DNA of 63,169 bases, filler included. It is 8 parts of 8 records of this genome, joined end to end, with 100 filler letters (N's around TTAATTAATTAA, not from the genome) between each part and the next. Parts side by side here need not be neighbours in the genome. Positions count along the whole stretch, not along the records: positions 35,293 to 43,229 come from SRR7504441_778; 7 more parts are not named here. The stretch is one strand, 5' to 3'. The notes under the pieces were generated by a model, which saw nothing but the letters and a program-made list of their open reading frames with translations, did not search any database and had not been told where the DNA came from. Below are positions 9,653 through 52,526 of this stretch, piece by piece. Each line of letters begins with the position of its first letter. Position 1 is the first letter of the stretch. The position numbers and the translations under genes are program-made.

Positions 9653-9752
9653 NNNNNNNNNNNNNNNNNNNNNNNNNNNNNNNNNNNNNNNNNNNNTTAA
9701 TTAATTAANNNNNNNNNNNNNNNNNNNNNNNNNNNNNNNNNNNNNNNNNNNN
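9653..9752. other. Artificial contig linker
   Basis: N44-TTAATTAATTAA-N44, which places stops in all six frames. Confidence 0.98.
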
Positions 9753-16331: not shown

Positions 16332-16761
16332 CTAGTTGGCCGCCTCCTTCTTCTTTGCGCTGGTGCCTGCCACCCCACCGGCTCGGCCCGCCGACGCGCC
16401 ACTCGGGCTCACCCTCACGGAAACCGTTCTTGGCGCGACGCGGCATGTTCTTCAGGTAGCGGCAACGGCCGGAGCCGGTGGTCTTCCTACGGAGTGCCTT
16501 GCGGCTCCAGTTATCTGACGCGCGCCGGTCAGTGCTCCGCCGCTGAGCTGTCGAGGGCGGGGGAGGGCTCACAAGAGCGGATCTTGGCTGCGGGGTAGCC
16601 GCAGGCAGCACAGGTCTTCTTCTGGATGTGGTAAGACCGGCGCCCGCACCGCCTACAGATAGTGTGCGACTTGTTGTGACGCTTACCGAATGAGGTGGTT
16701 CCCTTAGTCCTGCCCACACACACACGGTCACACACCCCGCGCGCGCGCCCCCGGCTCACAT
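16332..16761 (-). CDS. RPL37: 60S ribosomal protein L37 (eL37), 4 exons
   Basis: Spliced product [91 protein letters not shown]. Three GT-AG introns, the first (16710-16759) inside the start codon. Confidence 0.96.
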
Positions 16762-17416: not shown

Positions 17417-17516
17417 NNNNNNNNNNNNNNNNNNNNNNNNNNNNNNNNNNNNNNNNNNNNTTAATTAATTAANNNNNNNNNNNNNNNNNNNNNNNNNNNN
17501 NNNNNNNNNNNNNNNN
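17417..17516. other. Artificial contig linker
   Basis: N44-TTAATTAATTAA-N44. Confidence 0.98.
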
Positions 17517-23691: not shown

Positions 23692-23791
23692 NNNNNNNNN
23701 NNNNNNNNNNNNNNNNNNNNNNNNNNNNNNNNNNNTTAATTAATTAANNNNNNNNNNNNNNNNNNNNNNNNNNNNNNNNNNNNNNNNNNNN
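23692..23791. other. Artificial contig linker
   Basis: N44-TTAATTAATTAA-N44. Confidence 0.98.
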
Positions 23792-26700
23792 ATCGTCAGA
23801 GCCAGGCCAGTGGACAGCGACGAGTGCAGTGCAATGCTTGACTGGGTCATCAAAACTATGCTTGACAGTAAACGAGACGGTGCAGTGATGCGTAGATGGC
23901 AACGGGGTGCGCAGCTTCTAGTTGATTCACATGCAGACGTGAATGCACCAATAGCGGATAAAGGTTACAGCAGCTTGTTCCACTTCGCAGTCCAAAGCAC
24001 GGCAACTTGTCGGCCATTCTGTTTGCAGCTACTTCTAGATGCTGGTGCGTCAGTCAGCTGCGGACGCCACGTCAACCAATATTCAGACTTGGATTGGTGT
24101 CGTTCATTCTGTAAAATGACCCGAGGACACAGCATAAGCTCCCCGTTGATTTATAAAGCTATGGAGAACAGCAGCGTTGAGTTGGCTGCGATGGACCAGA
24201 ACAGTGCGTCAATGGCGCTATCAGAGTGTATTCGCTTCAGACACTTTGACTTCTTCAGATTTCTACTTTCGGTACTTCCACCTGATGTTGCCTCAGCATT
24301 CCAGCCCACCAACGAGGAGGTCAAGCACGTGACAGAGCTTGGGGAAATTGAAGTTTTAGAGACACTGCGAATTAAGCTATCGTCGTTCCCAGTTCTTTCC
24401 TGGAGCGCAGACGAGGTTGTAATTGAACAACTAATCGCAGCCAAAGCCGACGCCAATGCAACCGACAGAAACGGTAATAGAGCGATCCATGTGGCGATCC
24501 ATGTTCACACAGAAGCAGGCCGTATGGAACTTGTTGAAGTGCTGCTCAGAAACCGAGCAAACCTGAATGTCAAACGTAGCAAAGATGGGATGACTGCGCT
24601 GCATATTGCATGCCAGCGTGACCGGAAACCGCTTGCTGAGCTGCTGGTTGCTAGCAAAGCCGACCTGTCAGTGTGCAATGCTCGAGGCAAAGACGCACTT
24701 GCCTTCGCAGAGAAAGAGCACCGTACACTCTTGCAAGAGATTTCAAACAGGATGTTAGACCAATGTTCGACTTCTCCCAAAGACGAGCAAGATGTCCAGC
24801 CGAAGAGACGGACTCCGAAACCACAAAAGCTGATGCCACGGGTTCAGCCTGTGTTTACGCATGTGCCACGGTCTCCATCGAAGACATCGCCAAGCATATC
24901 GCTGCCCGAGATTATTCATTCCAAAATTTCGCTCATACAGGGATGTGTCGCCACTTTCGATGACCGTACTGTCCAAGCCGCATTGGCCTGCGAAGAGAAC
25001 GCTTGTCCACTTTGCAGCTTCAGTCTGGAGCTTTGCGTGTGCAGCGAGACCCACCGCGCAAAACGCAATGCAAGATGGAATCAAGTGCACTACGACTCTG
25101 CAACGTGCTCGGACTTGGAAAAGAGCGCCCTCCTATGCAGGATCATTGCGGTTCGTCGCCAGAAGCGGCAAGCGCTATACCAACCTAGTGCCATTAGTGA
25201 GCATCGCCCTCAGGAGGGCAACACGGAGATCAAATCCCTGGACGCATCCACCACCAAGCATGGAGAGGCAAAATCCGATATTCATTGCGCAGAACCTGGC
25301 GCTGTTGCTGAGACTCAGCAGATAACGATGTGCACTTCAGACGAGGAGATATCAAAAGAGGCAGCAAACGTCATGCAAGAAGACGAGTACGACCCGGCAG
25401 AAATATCACTCGACGGGCTGAACTGGGAGGTAGTAGTCTCGGCGCAAGCAAAGGATCAGTTGTGGTCTATGGAAGTACAGATGCAACGAACCATCATTCG
25501 ACACATCAGAGACCTCGCTAGTGGCTACTGGAGCCGAAAGTCGTCCGCAAAGCGTATTGAAGGCGTCTCTCCTTCTCTGAAGTTATACGAAACTAAACTA
25601 ACCAAAGGAGCTCGAATGCTCTGGGAGCAGTCGATCGGATTCAGTGGAAGGATGCATATGTACACAGATATAATCCGAATCTGGGCCATAGAGACGAACC
25701 ACGACAAGGTGCCTCGTCGAATCGCATACATCAGCGAGTCACACGCCAGAGGCCTCGATTCTGCTGTAAAGCGGCGTTTGCAGCCGTGTGCCTCGGCAAA
25801 TTACACAGATAGCGATGGTACTAGAGTTCGATTGCCTCGACGTTATCAATTGAACGAGAAGACTCTATCAGATGAAAACATGGAAGGTGCAGCTTCGGAA
25901 TCTTCAGATGACCAGAGCCACGCCGAAGATGCAGTGGTCTTCACCCCACCGGCCGAGGCCACAGCCAGGTTCATACTGATTGAGGTTCTGTGCTAAGACT
26001 TTTGGCTTGCAGGAACAAGTTCACGATTCTCAAGTTCTACGCGATGTCTGCTTCTTTCGTTCGGGCGATACTGACTTCGGCGCTGCGCCAAAGGCTCGGA
26101 GCCCCTGAAGCCTTTCCTTTCTGCACGGACGAAACCGAGGATTTCTTCATTAATCTTGCGCCTAGCCCGCCGCAGTCCATCATTATCATTGGCCGTTCCG
26201 GCACAGGGAAAACCACTGTCGCAGTTCAAAGAATGTGGGCCCAACATCAGTTCGTCAAAAGCCATCAAGATGCACCCGACTTCTCCCAGGTGTTCGTTAC
26301 GTGCAATCGTGTCCTCAAGGATCAGGTAGAGCGTAGTTTTAGAAGCCTCCTTGCGGGGGACTCGAATGCAGAGTCACAGAATGGGCCTGCCTTTTTGAAC
26401 AGCACCGAATGGTTGCAAATGCTAGATCGTGAGTTACCAGGCGACGCTTTCTTTGACTCGAAGGATTTGTCAGCCACGTGGACGTGGCATAGCGATGGCG
26501 AAATGCTCGACGCTATTACCTTAGATGATGAGAGCGACGAGGACGACGATGATGCTGTATGCGGGCCATCAACTCTGAGTTCACCTAGAGACAAGACTGG
26601 TTCCGCTTCTGAACTTCAGCGCCAGGTGACATTCTCGTTCTTTATGGAAAAGATGTGGCCAATAATGACCCGAATGTCTGGAGGCGCATACGCTAAGTAT

Positions 26701-35192: not shown

Positions 35193-35292
35193 NNNNNNNN
35201 NNNNNNNNNNNNNNNNNNNNNNNNNNNNNNNNNNNNTTAATTAATTAANNNNNNNNNNNNNNNNNNNNNNNNNNNNNNNNNNNNNNNNNNNN
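35193..35292. other. Artificial contig linker
   Basis: N44-TTAATTAATTAA-N44. Confidence 0.98.
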
Positions 35293-35297
35293 TCAGC

Positions 35298-37110
35298 ATG
35301 GTGAAGCTGGACGTGAGCAAGCTGCGGTACATGTCGCGGGACCACTTCCGGGTGCTGACCGCGATCGAGATCGGGATGAAGAACCACGAGATCGTGCCGG
35401 TCGCCCTGATCGACCGGATCGCCGGGCTGGCGCACGGCGGGGCCCGCCGATACATCGGGCACCTTCTCCGAGACAAACTGGTGGCGCACGACTCAAAGAA
35501 ATATGACGGGTACTACCTGACTTACCGGGGGTACGACCACTTGGCTCTCCGGGCGTTTGTCAGCCGGGGTCTGGTGGCCGGGATGGGCCGGCAGATCGGG
35601 TGCGGGAAGGAGTCCGACGTGTTCGAGGTGGTGGACGACGAGGGCCGGCTGTTCGCGCTCAAGCTACACCGGCTGGGCCGCACCTCCTTCCGGGCGGTCA
35701 AAAGCAAGCGCGACTACACCAAGAGCGGGCGGAAGCCCAGCAACTGGCTGTACCTGTCTCGGCTAGCGGCGCTCAAAGAATATTCGTACATGAAGGCGCT
35801 GCACCAGAACGGGTTCACCGTGCCAATCCCAGTGGACGCCAACCGGCACGCGGTGCTGATGGAGCTGGTGAACGGGATTCCTCTCAACAATGTAGTCGGC
35901 GTGCCGGATCCGCTCAGGCTGTACCGTGAGCTGCAGGAGGTGCTGTTCAGACTGGCCAGGGTGGGGCTGGTGCACTGCGACTTCAACGAGTTCAACATCA
36001 TGATGCACGAGGACGGCGAATCGTTCACCGTGATTGATTTCCCGCAGGCATGCCGCTGCCTCCTCCGGCACACTGAGTGCTGTTGGGCAGATTGTGAGCA
36101 CGAGCCACCTCAACGCAGGCGAACTGTTTATGCGGGACGTGCACGTGAGCGCTCCGAACACTGGGCCCGGCTGAGGGCGCGGCAGAGCTTGCACGATTAC
36201 TTTAGCCGCAAGTTCAACCTGGATCTGCCTCTGCTCGCGCTCGAGGAGGCGTTGCCGGAGCTTGATCACGAGAACGAGGTCGGGCGAGCGCCCTGGCTGT
36301 GATTCATATCCGGCACAGGTGAGCCTGGACAAGGAGCTCAAGTCGAGCGGATTTAGCGCCGACCAGCAGCAAGAGTTCAATGATGAGATCATGGCGGTCC
36401 TCGAGAGCAGTCGAGCTGCAGACGAGCAGGAGGAGTCGGAGGACTCGGATACCGACCTCGACAGTGACGAAGAGGACGAGGAGGACGAGGAGCAGCTGGT
36501 CGAGCAGCTGGGCGCCGCCCCGGAGGAACCAGAGCTCGATGACGGGGCCGCTGCGCTCCTGGCGGAATTCGAGCAAGCAATGCACGAGTGCGAGCGAGAG
36601 AGGTGCGCGCCCCTGGTGCTGCTCCTCGACTCAACCTGCAGCTGGGCAGGTCTTCGGAGGCTGAGGAGGCAGCTGCAGCTGTGGCGAGCAAGATGGTGGT
36701 CCCAGAGGAGCAGGCCGGGAGCCCACCCAGGTCGCCGATACTAGAGAGCGTGGACAGAAGGTCGGGCTGCTCAGGGCTGTCAGCGCTGAGAGGGGATGAC
36801 AGGCTCAACCCTCAGGGGGCCATAAATCGGGCGATTGGCTCCGACGTTGATGCGGCAAGGCAGCGTGCACAGGTGCTAGTGCAGGCTGAGTCTGGTTGCT
36901 GAATGGCCATGCCTGCAGGAAGTGGCACAGGCCAAGGCGGCCAAGCAAGCCATGAGTAAGGCCAAGCACGAGCAGCACGTGAGACACCGAGTCAGGAAGT
37001 CGCTAGCATCCAAGAATGCATCAAGTGGAGGAAGCAGAAATCGGAACAAGCTCAAGGGGCGCGAAAAGAAGAAGGCAGTGTCAGTTGAAATTGATCCGTT
37101 CTGGGGCTGA
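35298..37110 (+). CDS. RIO2: Serine/threonine kinase RIO2
   Basis: MVKLDVSKLRYMSRDHFRVLTAIEIGMKNHEIVP winged helix, IGCGKESDV, KLHRLGRTSFR, HCDFNEFN and IDFPQ|IVSTSH (GC-AG intron). Acidic then basic C-terminal exons run to TGA at 37110. Confidence 0.95.
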
Positions 37111-37454: not shown

Positions 37455-40400
37455 TCATTGCTTGGTGCGCTTGGAGCTCCGCTTGGCACCGTTCCTTGCC
37501 GAGCTCCGCTCTCCCTTTCTAGGTGCCTTCCTGCTGACGTCATCGCCGGAGTCCTCGGTGCTCGGCTCGTCACTATTCAGCATTTCCTCGTCCTCTGCCT
37601 CTTCTTCATCGTCTTCGGCTTCTTCATCGTCTTCCTCGCTTGTTGCCTTTGCAGAGTTGGCGACATTCTCGTGAGCAGCGCCATTCGTCAGGCTGCCTCT
37701 TTTCCTCTTGGACCTTGTCTGGCCTTCAGAGCTATCAGCCTCTTCGTCCTCCTCGCTTTGAACCCCGTTCTCAACCCCATTTGTGTGAGTGCCATTCTGA
37801 TGAGCACCATTTTGATGATCGCCGTTCTGCATTTCAGTCACTCCATTCGCTTCGACCTTTTCAGCCTCTTCTTTCGCCTTTTCAGCCTCTTCTTTCGCTT
37901 TATTCTCAGCAATCAGCTGTTCCTTAGTAAGTATGGGCTCGCCTTCCTTGTGATACTCAACAATTCGGATTGTGTCATCCGGAAGCGTGACATCCTCTTC
38001 AGAGCCATCTACGTAAGCAATTTTGCACTCCTTGCCCTCAACCTTGACGATGACACCCTCGCTCCAACCATACAGATCCCACCACACTGACACCCGAGTC
38101 CCCAAAAGACGAGCCCATTCAATGGCCTCTTCGGCATCGTCATCGGCTTCCGCAATCTCTCTCTTCTTGGAAACCCACTTTCCCTTGCCGCAGCCTTCTC
38201 CAACAACTTCGAACCCCTCATCATCTTCGTTTACGGCCTTCTTCACATTTCCGTACTGGGTCAGTGTCTTTCCCCCATAAACCCAGCCCTTGGCCTTGTC
38301 CTCGGCATACCTTGCTTTGTAGAGCTCAAACTTGGCCTGCGCTTCCTCGAGTGCAGGGGGGGCGACATTCTGAGAGTTGGCATCACAGCCTTCCAGACAG
38401 AATGCTTGTCTCTTTCCGCACAGGACAGCCTCCACCTGCAAGACAGAGCCATCAGGTCAGCGGTTGCTGTGGGAGCAGCCACCTTTTCAGGGTCCACCTT
38501 CTCAAACTCGGTCCATTGACGTGTGTTTTTGAAACCATTCACCATGTCCACCCACCATTTGTTGTACCCTTCAGGCCATCCCGGGTACTTGACACACACC
38601 TCGAAATAGCTCTTCCCGTCGTCGTCTTTAATCCGACGGATGCCATGAATTGAGTCCAGGATCCAGTTGCGGTACTGATCGACTTCATCCAGCAGCTCAA
38701 ACGGGGTCTTCTTGTTGTACCGGGACGAGTGGTCACTCCGGGTCTCTGTGTTGTACTCGACCAGAATCTCTTCGTAAGTCATTGGCTCCAGCTTGGGACG
38801 AGGAAGATCCTTGGGCGAGTGCCTATCGAGCTTGGGCATCTTCTCCACATCATAATTCTCAAAATACTCGGCAAAGGTCTCCAGGCTCTGGGAATACGTC
38901 GCTGAGCCCTGGTAGCCCTCACCTAGCGAACTGCAGTGCGCGCTGAGCACAGTCCGAGCGAGGGCTTTTGTCAGTTGCGGCGAGACCGCATTGCCAATCT
39001 GCTTGTACATGGCGTTCACGTCACCTCGGAACACAAACGAATCTGGAAAGCCCTGCACGCGAGCTTTCTCCCGGACAGACATCACCCTGGCGTCGAAAGG
39101 GACCAGTGACGGATGCCAGTGCGGCTTGTGGTACGAGTGGACTGTGTCGTGCGGTCTGTCGTACTGCAGCCTCCCGTAGCACCCGTGGTCCTTGCCGTGC
39201 TTCATGGTCAAGCACCAGTATGGTACCAACGGGAACCTGCCAGCAGTACATATTAGAGATGGCCTGGGCTGCAGCCAGGAGCAGGCAGATGTGAGATTTA
39301 GCGGGTCGATTGAGCACTGAGGCTAGCAAGCCAGAGCGCGTGCCTCGACCTGCGTTAATGTCGCTCCCATTTCATCGCAAAACACCATAGTCCGGTGCCC
39401 GTGAATCAGTTAGAAGGAGCAATGACAAGTCAAACAGCCAAGGGATGTGCACCGGTGAGATTCCATTTCCCAGTTGTGCCGCAATGGCGGGATCTCGTTC
39501 TTTGGCATAGTCGACTTCTTTTTCTCCGTCTTGCGCATAAAATCCGGAATCTTACCACACCATCTGCCGAAACGTCTCAAACTCCACCCGGTACACGGCA
39601 CTGGCACCTTGAAGCGATGCCGTCGCCGCCTTCCCATTCTTCGTCGGTGAGCACCATCATCATCGGCTGCAGCATCGAGGCCACATGGTGGTCGCCGGCC
39701 ATCTCCCTCCAGCTGGCGTCTTTATGGAATGGGACGCAGTTACTCCTCAGCCGGTCCGATAGACCCAACCTAAGCACCGAGGAGTCATGTGAGGCTGGCC
39801 ATCTGTGCTTGCACCGGTAAACTACGTGGTTTGTGACTTGGGCCTCATCGCAGTCTTGTCTCAAGTAGGCAATGAACGGGGTCGGGGGCTCGGTCACGTA
39901 AGTGCATTTAGCCTCTTCCATCTTGGTAATGTTCTTGTTGGCTCCCTGAGGCGCAGCGGCAGGTCAGACTTGGGTTGAAAAAGAGCCTGCACCCGGAATT
40001 CTGCAGGGGCGATTGGAAGGTCGCATGACAGCGAGTCCCCGAGCACCAGGGTCCGGAGCAGCTGCTTGCCCTCCTTCTTCATCTGGGTCCACAGTGAGTG
40101 CCCACTAGCATGCACGCCCGAACACCTCCAGAGGGTAGCAGCTCTTGCTCGAATCAAACGACCGGACAAGCTCGTCCTCGTCGTCCTTGTAGTTGCTGTG
40201 CGTGACAGCCGGCAGCTCGACCGGGCTGAGCCCGTTCAGGGTAGCGATCACAATCAACCGGTCGCGGGTCTGCGGGCAGCCATACAGCCCTGCAACAGTC
40301 CAGCTGAGTGCTGATTCGAACTCGGAGCCCGCACCGGTTCTCATCCGGGCGTCATACTTCATGCTATAGCCCTTGCGAGCATACACCATGTCCATCCACT

Positions 40401-41577
40401 CCATGACGTTACCCTGGACAAACCCAGCGTCGGCGAATCACCCGGAGCGCGGCGCGAGCTACCTTGGTCGCCACGTCTGGCACCTCTTCCATGATGACAT
40501 ACAGTGGACGGTACAGCCAGACCACCTCCAGGAAGCGGCCGAGCAGTCTATTCTCCGAATCTTCCATCAAGTCACTCAGGTCCTTGCCGTGGATCCTCTG
40601 GGTGTTGTACCCAGACCAGCCCTGACATGGCGGCCCACCCGAGAGGATCTGCACATCACCTGCGGCGGCTGAGCTGGGCCAACTTGCCGGAGACACCTGG
40701 CAGCGGGAACTTGTTGGGGGTGAAAGAGGACGAGTTGAGGTAATGGTGAATGGCCGCCTCAAGCTCGCCGTTTGATTTGTCGGTCTCCCACTTGTCCTGC
40801 GGGCGGTCACGGGCCCAGCCGGTCGGGAGCAGCACCTTGTCGGCGTTGTCCCGCCTCACCAGGAAAGAAAGCCACGGAATCGGGGCGATTCCCTTGACCT
40901 AGGCCCGGAGATCGCCCGTGGTGTGGGGGCAAGGCCGGTCACCTGATCCAGCGTGACGTCATCCTTGTCCTGCTTGTCCTTGGTGGAGGCGGCCTTCTTC
41001 TTTGTCTTGTCCTTGTCCTTCTTCTGGGCCACATCGGTATCGATCCGCAGGTTCATGATTTTAATCCCCTTGGGCGCGTGTACGTCCGCGGCGGTCTTGA
41101 GCTTGTGTAGCCGTCTGAGCTCGTCGGCTCAGCACCGGGCGCAGGCGGGGCGGCACCTGGCAGTGGCTAGGAAGCGGCCGATCCCGATCGTGAGAACGTT
41201 GGTGTCGGGGAAGTTGGTCTTGTAGGTCCTGCCACCGGCTGAGCCCCCCCGGGGAGGAGGACGCACGCTGCAGGGTACTGCTCGATCTCGACGGCGCAAA
41301 TGGTCTTGAGCCTGAGCTGATTGTCGCCCTCAAACGTTGCCACGCCGTCCATATGCAGCCCGCCGCATCCGGCGAACACGTCCAGGCACTGGAGCACCTT
41401 GGGCAGCTCGGCCGGCGCCGCGTCGTCGCACGGCTCCCAAAGCTCCATGTCGCAGTTGGCGAAGGTGGTCAGCTTCTTGGCCGGCTTGGCCGGTTGCTCC
41501 GCCTCTTCCTCCTCCACCATCGGCTCCTCCGCCGACGGCTCCGCCACCGGCTCGTCAATATCCATAGGCCCCGGCAT
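37455..41577 (-). CDS. Cytosine-5 DNA methyltransferase, CMT/DNMT1-like, with C-terminal chromo-like and Tudor-like domains; 14 exons
   Basis: Motif I LDVFAGCGG, IV PLPGDVQILSGGPPCQGWS, VI VIMEEVPD, VIII GLYGCPQTRDR, IX RVMSVREKARVQGFPD and X YKQIGNAV. Thirteen GT-AG introns give one continuous frame. Confidence 0.9.
39287..39422 (-). ncRNA. Intronic box H/ACA snoRNA, predicted guide for 18S rRNA pseudouridine 105/106 (snR44/SNORA36-like)
   Basis: Lies in a 216-nt intron (39237-39452). Layout is hairpin, H box ACATTA (39361-39356), hairpin, ACA (39292-39290) plus 3 nt. Pocket strands TAACTGATT and ATGA are complementary to 18S UCAU-UA-AAUCAGUUA, with 14 nt from pocket to H box. Confidence 0.8.
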
Positions 41578-43229: not shown

Positions 43230-43329
43230 NNNNNNNNNNNNNNNNNNNNNNNNNNNNNNNNNNNNNNNNNNNNTTAATTAATTAANNNNNNNNNNNNNNN
43301 NNNNNNNNNNNNNNNNNNNNNNNNNNNNN
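43230..43329. other. Artificial contig linker
   Basis: N44-TTAATTAATTAA-N44. Confidence 0.98.
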
Positions 43330-48927: not shown

Positions 48928-49027
48928 NNNNNNNNNNNNNNNNNNNNNNNNNNNNNNNNNNNNNNNNNNNNTTAATTAATTAANNNNNNNNNNNNNNNNN
49001 NNNNNNNNNNNNNNNNNNNNNNNNNNN
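48928..49027. other. Artificial contig linker
   Basis: N44-TTAATTAATTAA-N44. Confidence 0.98.
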
Positions 49028-52426: not shown

Positions 52427-52526
52427 NNNNNNNNNNNNNNNNNNNNNNNNNNNNNNNNNNNNNNNNNNNNTTAATTAATTAANNNNNNNNNNNNNNNNNN
52501 NNNNNNNNNNNNNNNNNNNNNNNNNN
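52427..52526. other. Artificial contig linker
   Basis: N44-TTAATTAATTAA-N44. Confidence 0.98.

Follow-up and report, generated by a model that had tools for sequence, protein, structure and literature searches.

A candidate box H/ACA small nucleolar RNA in the long intron of a DNA methyltransferase gene

The host gene and its long intron

The DNA analysed (the window) is a stretch of 63,169 nt, the minus strand of which contains a gene that, judged by its Pfam matches, is that of a C5 DNA methyltransferase. One intron of this gene (39237-39452) has a length of 216 nt, and probably carries a box H/ACA small nucleolar RNA (snoRNA) of ~134 nt, running from 39420 to 39287 on the minus strand. The assignment is based upon the architecture of the fold, the placement of the boxes, the geometry of two guide strands complementary to 18S ribosomal RNA (rRNA) and the anomalous length of the intron. 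An H/ACA snoRNA had been proposed at this position in an earlier note on the same DNA. The proposal holds on all of these grounds; the target that the note named, and the emphasis that it laid on the nature of the host gene, do not. The intron and its flanking exons are as follows.

39453-39563, minus strand: exon of the host gene upstream of the long intron (spliced alignment)
39237-39452, minus strand: GT..AG spliceosomal intron (GTGCAC...CAG) of 216 nt in the DNA methyltransferase gene (sequence, messenger RNA (mRNA) of a relative, and spliced alignment)
38747-39236, minus strand: exon downstream of the long intron, with the C-terminal C5 DNA methylase motifs (Pfam PF00145 and alignment; the lower bound is the end of a tblastn block)

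The DNA_methylase family (PF00145) is matched in the C-terminal exon with E = 6.1e-14, and in the exon bearing the PCQ motif with E = 5.2e-7. When the flanking exons are joined they read ...RHNWEMESHR|FPLVPYWCLTMKH..., and continue into the C-terminal motifs of the C5 DNA methyltransferases. The removal of the intron is observed in RNA of relatives, in two transcripts independent of each other. Twenty-four sequencing runs were listed, all of them as metatranscriptome contigs and with shares of at most 0.14, and four were aligned (two PolyA, one RANDOM and one Inverse rRNA). In a contig of run X1, from a relative that is <90% alike, only 25 letters separate 39228 from 39470, exactly the number that diverged exon sequence flanking the intron (8 + 17 nt) accounts for, so the borders of the long intron are exact in this contig. 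A contig from a metagenome collection (L001, 78% protein identity) is continuous across the same junction, and since it also lacks the neighbouring small intron it is taken to be a spliced mRNA. The intron was thus placed correctly in the earlier note, both as to borders and length. In a contig of run X2 that is 99% identical to the window a 45-nt intron at 39770-39814 has been removed. Contigs of exons only were found in runs X1, X2 and X3, and none in X15. Read-through into the long intron encounters an in-frame TAA after 14 codons, and the length of the intron is divisible by three.

The sizes of the introns were obtained by alignment of the L001 open reading frame (ORF) to the window, with the junctions refined for GT..AG borders, frame and protein score. 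In the part of the gene covered by L001 there are 12 introns, of 38, 42, 44, 39, 37, 49, 45, 52, 47, 45, 44 and 216 nt. The last is an outlier, 4-5 times longer than its 11 neighbours (37-52 nt). Twelve other introns, all below 50 nt, had been counted in the earlier note; the long intron is indeed an outlier, while the short ones checked number 11 and one of these has 52 nt. Within this part of the gene (38747-41535, minus strand) 11 of the 12 introns begin GTG, and eight GTGC, so that the introns follow a tight, tiny-intron regime.

The runs that hold parts of the gene are all marine, seawater, estuary or other aquatic metatranscriptomes. Among homologues of the host protein that carry a species name, the nearest is that of Nephroselmis pyriformis, a prasinophyte green alga, with 54% identity, while those without a name go up to 75-76%. 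The source organism is therefore probably a marine green alga. A search of the Protein Atlas returned generic DNA methylase clusters only, at 0.82, which is a lead at best.

Fold and boxes of the candidate snoRNA

The proposed unit corresponds to nucleotides 33-166 of the intron. Starting from its 5′ end, the elements are these.

39287-39420, minus strand: proposed H/ACA snoRNA unit of 134 nt (minimum free energy (MFE) fold; the mature ends are presumed)
39363-39420, minus strand: hairpin 1: lower stem GCUCCU/GGGAGC (6 bp), then a pocket, then an upper stem (7-8 pairs, and an imperfect extension of two more)
39356-39361, minus strand: H box ACAUUA (consensus ANANNA), 1 nt past the lower stem of hairpin 1 (sequence and fold)
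39304-39350, minus strand: hairpin 2, of 6 + 5 + 4 bp, -22.3 kcal/mol, z = -2.9 (fold)
39290-39292, minus strand: ACA, 8-11 nt past hairpin 2, with the presumed 3′ end 3 nt further on at 39287

The MFE structure of the unit (-45.0 kcal/mol) comprises exactly a hairpin, a free hinge, a second hairpin and a free tail, and the centroid structure also has two hairpins. The z-score of the unit is -2.37, with 1.6% of 500 shuffled sequences folding equally well, and those of hairpins 1 and 2 are -1.87 and -2.91 respectively, and hairpin 2 is thus more stable than hairpin 1; the boundaries of the unit were picked after the fact, and all these scores are flattering to that extent. With the guide strands, H box and tail constrained to be unpaired, an open-pocket structure of -43.7 kcal/mol results, at a cost of 1.3 kcal/mol. 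In known H/ACA RNAs the ACA adjoins the stem, and the distance seen here is atypical. Each of the elements named previously (two hairpins, ACATTA and ACA) is present in the intron, with the ACA lying 8-11 nt off hairpin 2 instead of adjoining it.

Hairpin 1 contains a CUGA and a near-match to a C box (CGAUGA), and, as noted above, the intron length is a multiple of three. These features would fit an element of another kind: a snoRNA of the C/D class, a copy of a mobile introner, or a coding exon that is retained or used alternatively. Each of these was considered and rejected. At usable distances, CUGA is not preceded by a C box, nor CGAUGA followed by a D box. Within the 63-kb window, which was the DNA searched, the intron has no second copy, and the best of the other blastn matches were of 15-17 nt with E >= 1.2. 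A retained or alternative exon would meet the in-frame TAA after 14 codons, and the segment is absent from the mRNA of the relatives (the X1 contig and L001). An element of this sort we regard as highly improbable.

Predicted pairing with 18S rRNA and the position of the target

The pocket of hairpin 1 presents two strands that are complementary to a conserved section of 18S rRNA.

39404-39412, minus strand: 5′ guide strand UAACUGAUU, complementary to 18S AAUCAGUUA (duplex energy -7.9 kcal/mol)
39372-39375, minus strand: 3′ guide strand AUGA, complementary to 18S UCAU, beginning 14 nt before the H box

The sequence TAACTGATT occurs once in the window, where 0.05 occurrences are expected. Pairing was sought between both pockets and an 18S-like fragment of ~40 nt from contig L003, which is not the 18S rRNA of the host itself; G-U pairs and many junction positions were allowed, with at least three pairs on each side and at least nine in total. 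The sole canonical bipartite pairing with the 18S motif was UCAU[UA]AAUCAGUUA, in which 9 + 4 Watson-Crick pairs, with no G-U, flank an unpaired U-A. The spacing to the H box is 14 nt, counted from the 3′ guide's first nucleotide, and 16 nt when counted from the base of the stem in the open-pocket fold. Pairing of the pocket strands around a U with a 14-nt spacing was already described in the earlier note, and is borne out here. In a random target of 30 Mb, searched with 10 × 3 junction choices, there were eight matches of at least 13 bp, equivalent to 0.0016 per 6 kb (the size of rRNA). The assignment of a target presupposes that UCAUUAAAUCAGUUA is present in the 18S rRNA of the host. The fragment used came from a search of viral_contigs with two conserved 18S motifs, which returned L003 and L004; the latter is not rRNA, and Rfam was blank for both. 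The fragment in L003 (3583-3622, minus strand) is isolated between unrelated AT-rich flanks, and looks chimeric or captured.

According to the guide rules given by De Zoysa et al. 2018 (PMC6049503), no fewer than 8 bp are required, uneven splits are functional, the pocket tolerates additional nucleotides left unpaired at the stem's base, and it is the 5′-most unpaired U that is modified. Human guides of 6 + 4 and 7 + 3 nt are tabulated in PMC1636440. The candidate pairing conforms to these rules, since its 13 bp exceed the minimum of eight, and since uneven splits and unpaired nucleotides at the stem base are tolerated.

The 14-nt spacing holds equally well if the ACA of ACAUUA (39361-39359) is taken as a 3′ box. 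The RNA might thus be a single-hairpin H/ACA-like species comprising hairpin 1 alone, with hairpin 2 a separate structure of the intron; it is in keeping with this that hairpin 2 has no usable pocket and that its own ACA is badly placed. Eukaryotic single-hairpin H/ACA RNAs are known from euglenozoans; of the named relatives of the host gene, on the other hand, the nearest is a green alga. Moreover, hairpin 2 has the greater stability (z = -2.9). We consider a single-hairpin RNA very unlikely, and return to the two-hairpin snoRNA in what follows.

The target had previously been given as yeast pseudouridine (Psi) 106, equivalent to human Psi105. We take SNORA36 and SNORA50, named as guides in the earlier note, to be among those that serve Psi105. 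The numbering can be fixed from a DNAzyme that cuts yeast 18S rRNA 3′ of A100, listed in Table 1 of Buchhaupt et al. 2014 (PMC3938493), the arms of which are the reverse complements of a stretch ending GGCUC and of a stretch starting UUAAAUCAG. A100 is therefore the A that follows GGCUC, and U106 is the U of AAAUCAG. By this numbering the unpaired U of the predicted duplex is yeast U102, and not Psi106 (human Psi105); U106 lies 4 nt to the 3′ side, within the 9-bp section, and the target previously assigned is displaced by these four nucleotides. A register directed at U106 would have just 5 + 4 pairs, including a G-U, at 20 nt from the H box.

The modifications reported nearby are on other nucleotides. 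Psi106 of yeast 18S rRNA is guided by snR44, which also guides Psi1056 of 25S rRNA; yeast 18S rRNA has 14 pseudouridines, and Psi106 and Psi120 are the only ones listed near the target (PMC7641733). The sites tabulated nearby in PMC1636440 are human Psi105, guided by SNORA76, and Psi109, guided by SNORA80 (ACA67). Am100 is made by snR51 (PMC5699541). The main text of a review of modification in Arabidopsis (PMC8351944) has nothing on the position equivalent to U102, and a literature search for the RNA motif together with 'pseudouridine' found no paper. In terms of its pairing register the candidate is not the functional equivalent of snR44 or of SNORA36, SNORA50 or SNORA76; if active, it points at a site that is not known to be modified.

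If the snoRNA is functional, its path might be as follows. The intron would be excised from the methyltransferase pre-mRNA and debranched, and exonucleases would then trim it to borders shielded by Cbf5/dyskerin-Nop10-Nhp2-Gar1. The pocket of hairpin 1 would pair with the conserved 18S GGCUCAUUAAAUCAGUUA, through a 5′ section of 4 bp and a 3′ section of 9 bp, and pseudouridine would be formed from the second U of CAUUAAA (U102 by the yeast numbering). Hairpin 2, having no usable pocket, would serve in particle assembly only. The candidate may in this way be a lineage-specific H/ACA guide with an atypical 3′ half, directing pseudouridine formation at the universally conserved U102 of 18S rRNA, between Am100 and Psi106. 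We put this forward tentatively, as a possibility that falls a little short of an even chance.

Chance expectation, known systems and the remainder of the window

The chance level of the architecture was estimated with a scanner that required ANANNA followed at 55-85 nt by ACA, with both boxes unpaired and a folding energy of <= -35 kcal/mol. The hairpins were to be unbranched, the first being at least 45 nt long with a gap of at most 2 nt to the H box, the second at least 40 nt long with a gap of at most 11 nt to the ACA. In the real window there are three matches from 523 H/ACA box pairs, the candidate being one. The remaining two, both on the minus strand, were taken as false positives: that at 26042-26120 is antisense to an ORF of 1921 codons, and that at 16443-16516 overlaps ORFs of 226 and 148 codons. 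The background was measured under the same loosened criteria in 12 windows shuffled in 500-nt blocks with preservation of dinucleotides. These gave 0-9 matches, with a mean of 2.4 per 126 kb (1.0 at <= -45 kcal/mol), from which the architecture is expected ~0.004 times in one given 216 nt on one strand. On the plus strand the scan gave no architecture compatible with the boxes. The G-U pairs, which had been said to favour the host strand, discriminate weakly, being five of 36 pairs, with -45.0 kcal/mol for the sense strand and -42.8 for the antisense.

A number of observations weigh against a snoRNA in this intron. The criteria of the scan were set post hoc, and were loosened so as to pass the candidate (for example in allowing a gap of up to 11 nt before the ACA); even so the real window is not enriched in matches, with three against the mean of 2.4 in the shuffles. 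The fold of the whole intron has a z-score of -0.10, being equalled by 88 of 200 shuffles (its centroid still holds both hairpins). The ACA is 11 nt past the 6-bp stem of hairpin 2, and 8 nt past a 2-bp extension of it, and hairpin 2 lacks a pocket 14-16 nt away from the ACA, any pocket in it being at least 21 nt off. In hairpin 1 the upper stem can directly abut only one of the guide strands at once, leaving two guide nucleotides unpaired opposite: the closing pair is C52-G77 in the MFE fold (two unpaired on the 5′ side) or C50-G75 in the open-pocket fold (two on the 3′ side), and as modelled the junction of guide and stem is near-canonical only. The Rfam search suggested in the earlier note matched the candidate to no family, either at the gathering score or at E <= 10 on 39150-39550 (4227 families), and at E <= 5 the whole window gave three weak matches, all elsewhere. 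No RNA contig covers the inside of the long intron in the four aligned metatranscriptome runs, which is uninformative either way. Lastly, U102 is not known to be modified in yeast or human.

Several of these (the z-score of the whole intron, the number of matches relative to the shuffles, the misplacement of the ACA by 8-11 nt, the lack of an Rfam match, and a target that is not a known pseudouridine site) would suit an ordinary long intron, such as an insertion of long standing, spacer DNA or a regulatory sequence, in which the hairpins, the A-rich motifs and the complementarity to 18S rRNA are coincidental and no stable RNA is made. In random sequence the product of the two chances is nevertheless small (~0.004, that of finding the architecture in one particular 216-nt stretch, multiplied by ~0.0016, that of a canonical 13-bp match to rRNA), and the intron bearing the feature is the one whose length exceeds that of its 11 neighbours 4-5 times. 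An ordinary intron is in our estimation unlikely, and the H/ACA snoRNA is the reading preferred here.

Orthologous genomic loci were sought in three collections. A scan of the metagenome contigs gave the spliced mRNA L001 and one distant match (L002) only, that of genome_contigs only a bacterial methylase (L005), and that of viral_contigs none. Three predicted proteins (P0002, P0003 and P0007) begin at a Met directly after the junction of the long intron, as would be expected if their contigs are genomic and have an intron there.

Of the known systems, the Ot-HAsno set of Ostreococcus tauri (PMC7671301) is the most alike. It too is of the marine green lineage, and its members lie within introns of protein-coding genes, many of them not concerned with ribosome biogenesis; they are described as released from the excised intron, and most were found by prediction software and inspection, and not by Rfam. 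The candidate, compared with the set by description, differs in that its ACA is 8-11 nt from hairpin 2. In O. tauri 72 of 131 snoRNAs are reported as intronic, 35 are H/ACA, and hosts that function in ribosome biogenesis or RNA processing make up only 33% and 18% (PMC7671301), while the human H/ACA hosts given in PMC1636440 include CHD3 and PARP16. A chromatin enzyme as host had been thought unusual, which these examples contradict; as many snoRNA hosts lie outside ribosome biogenesis, a methyltransferase is unremarkable in this role. The guides of Psi106 and Psi105 (snR44 and SNORA76) pair with the same conserved 18S stretch as does the candidate. Relative to these and to SNORA36 and SNORA50, the unpaired U of the candidate is 4 nt to the 5′ side, U106 is paired, and there is no match to a covariance model. 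SNORA80, with a guide of 6 + 4 nt, acts at a neighbouring site (Psi109) in the same helix region, and differs from the candidate in its target nucleotide (PMC1636440).

Ostreococcus has only 11 predicted rRNA pseudouridylation targets, and the authors of PMC7671301 call H/ACA RNAs under-detected, stating also that for no marine alga had the modifications of rRNA been mapped. The candidate, if genuine, would add one more H/ACA guide and a predicted rRNA pseudouridine site in algae in which these modifications are unmapped. Were it also lineage-specific, the modification would be one as yet unmapped in any model organism. Such an RNA is of a well-known kind and would involve no new mechanism, nor would the choice of host gene have special meaning. 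A practical rule would follow, that in genomes with introns of ~45 nt those that are outliers in length merit examination for a snoRNA.

Some further features of the gene and window may be recorded. Two of the predicted proteins are relatives of the section at 38471-39235. In P0002 the frame changes after DSIHG, where the window reads on, and its genome seems to have an intron there that is absent from the window. P0008 reads through a YIYIYIYIFFIFFF stretch directly before the conserved block, and this stretch has the look of an intron of low complexity at a position close by. On the minus strand at 37553-37613, in a region coding for an acidic tail downstream of the methyltransferase, there is a weak match to the C/D RNA sR41 (23.7 bits compared with a gathering score of 54, E = 0.22), which is probably due to chance. 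The window also has seven pairs of 44-N runs, with 12 bases between the two runs of a pair (616 N in total), that look like masking or scaffolding and not biology.

9653-9752: pair of N runs
17417-17516: pair of N runs
23692-23791: pair of N runs
35193-35292: pair of N runs
43230-43329: pair of N runs
48928-49027: pair of N runs
52427-52526: pair of N runs

Beside one of the masked stretches, on the plus strand at 35293-36302, is an ORF that by eye resembles a RIO-type protein kinase (LVHCDFNEFN).

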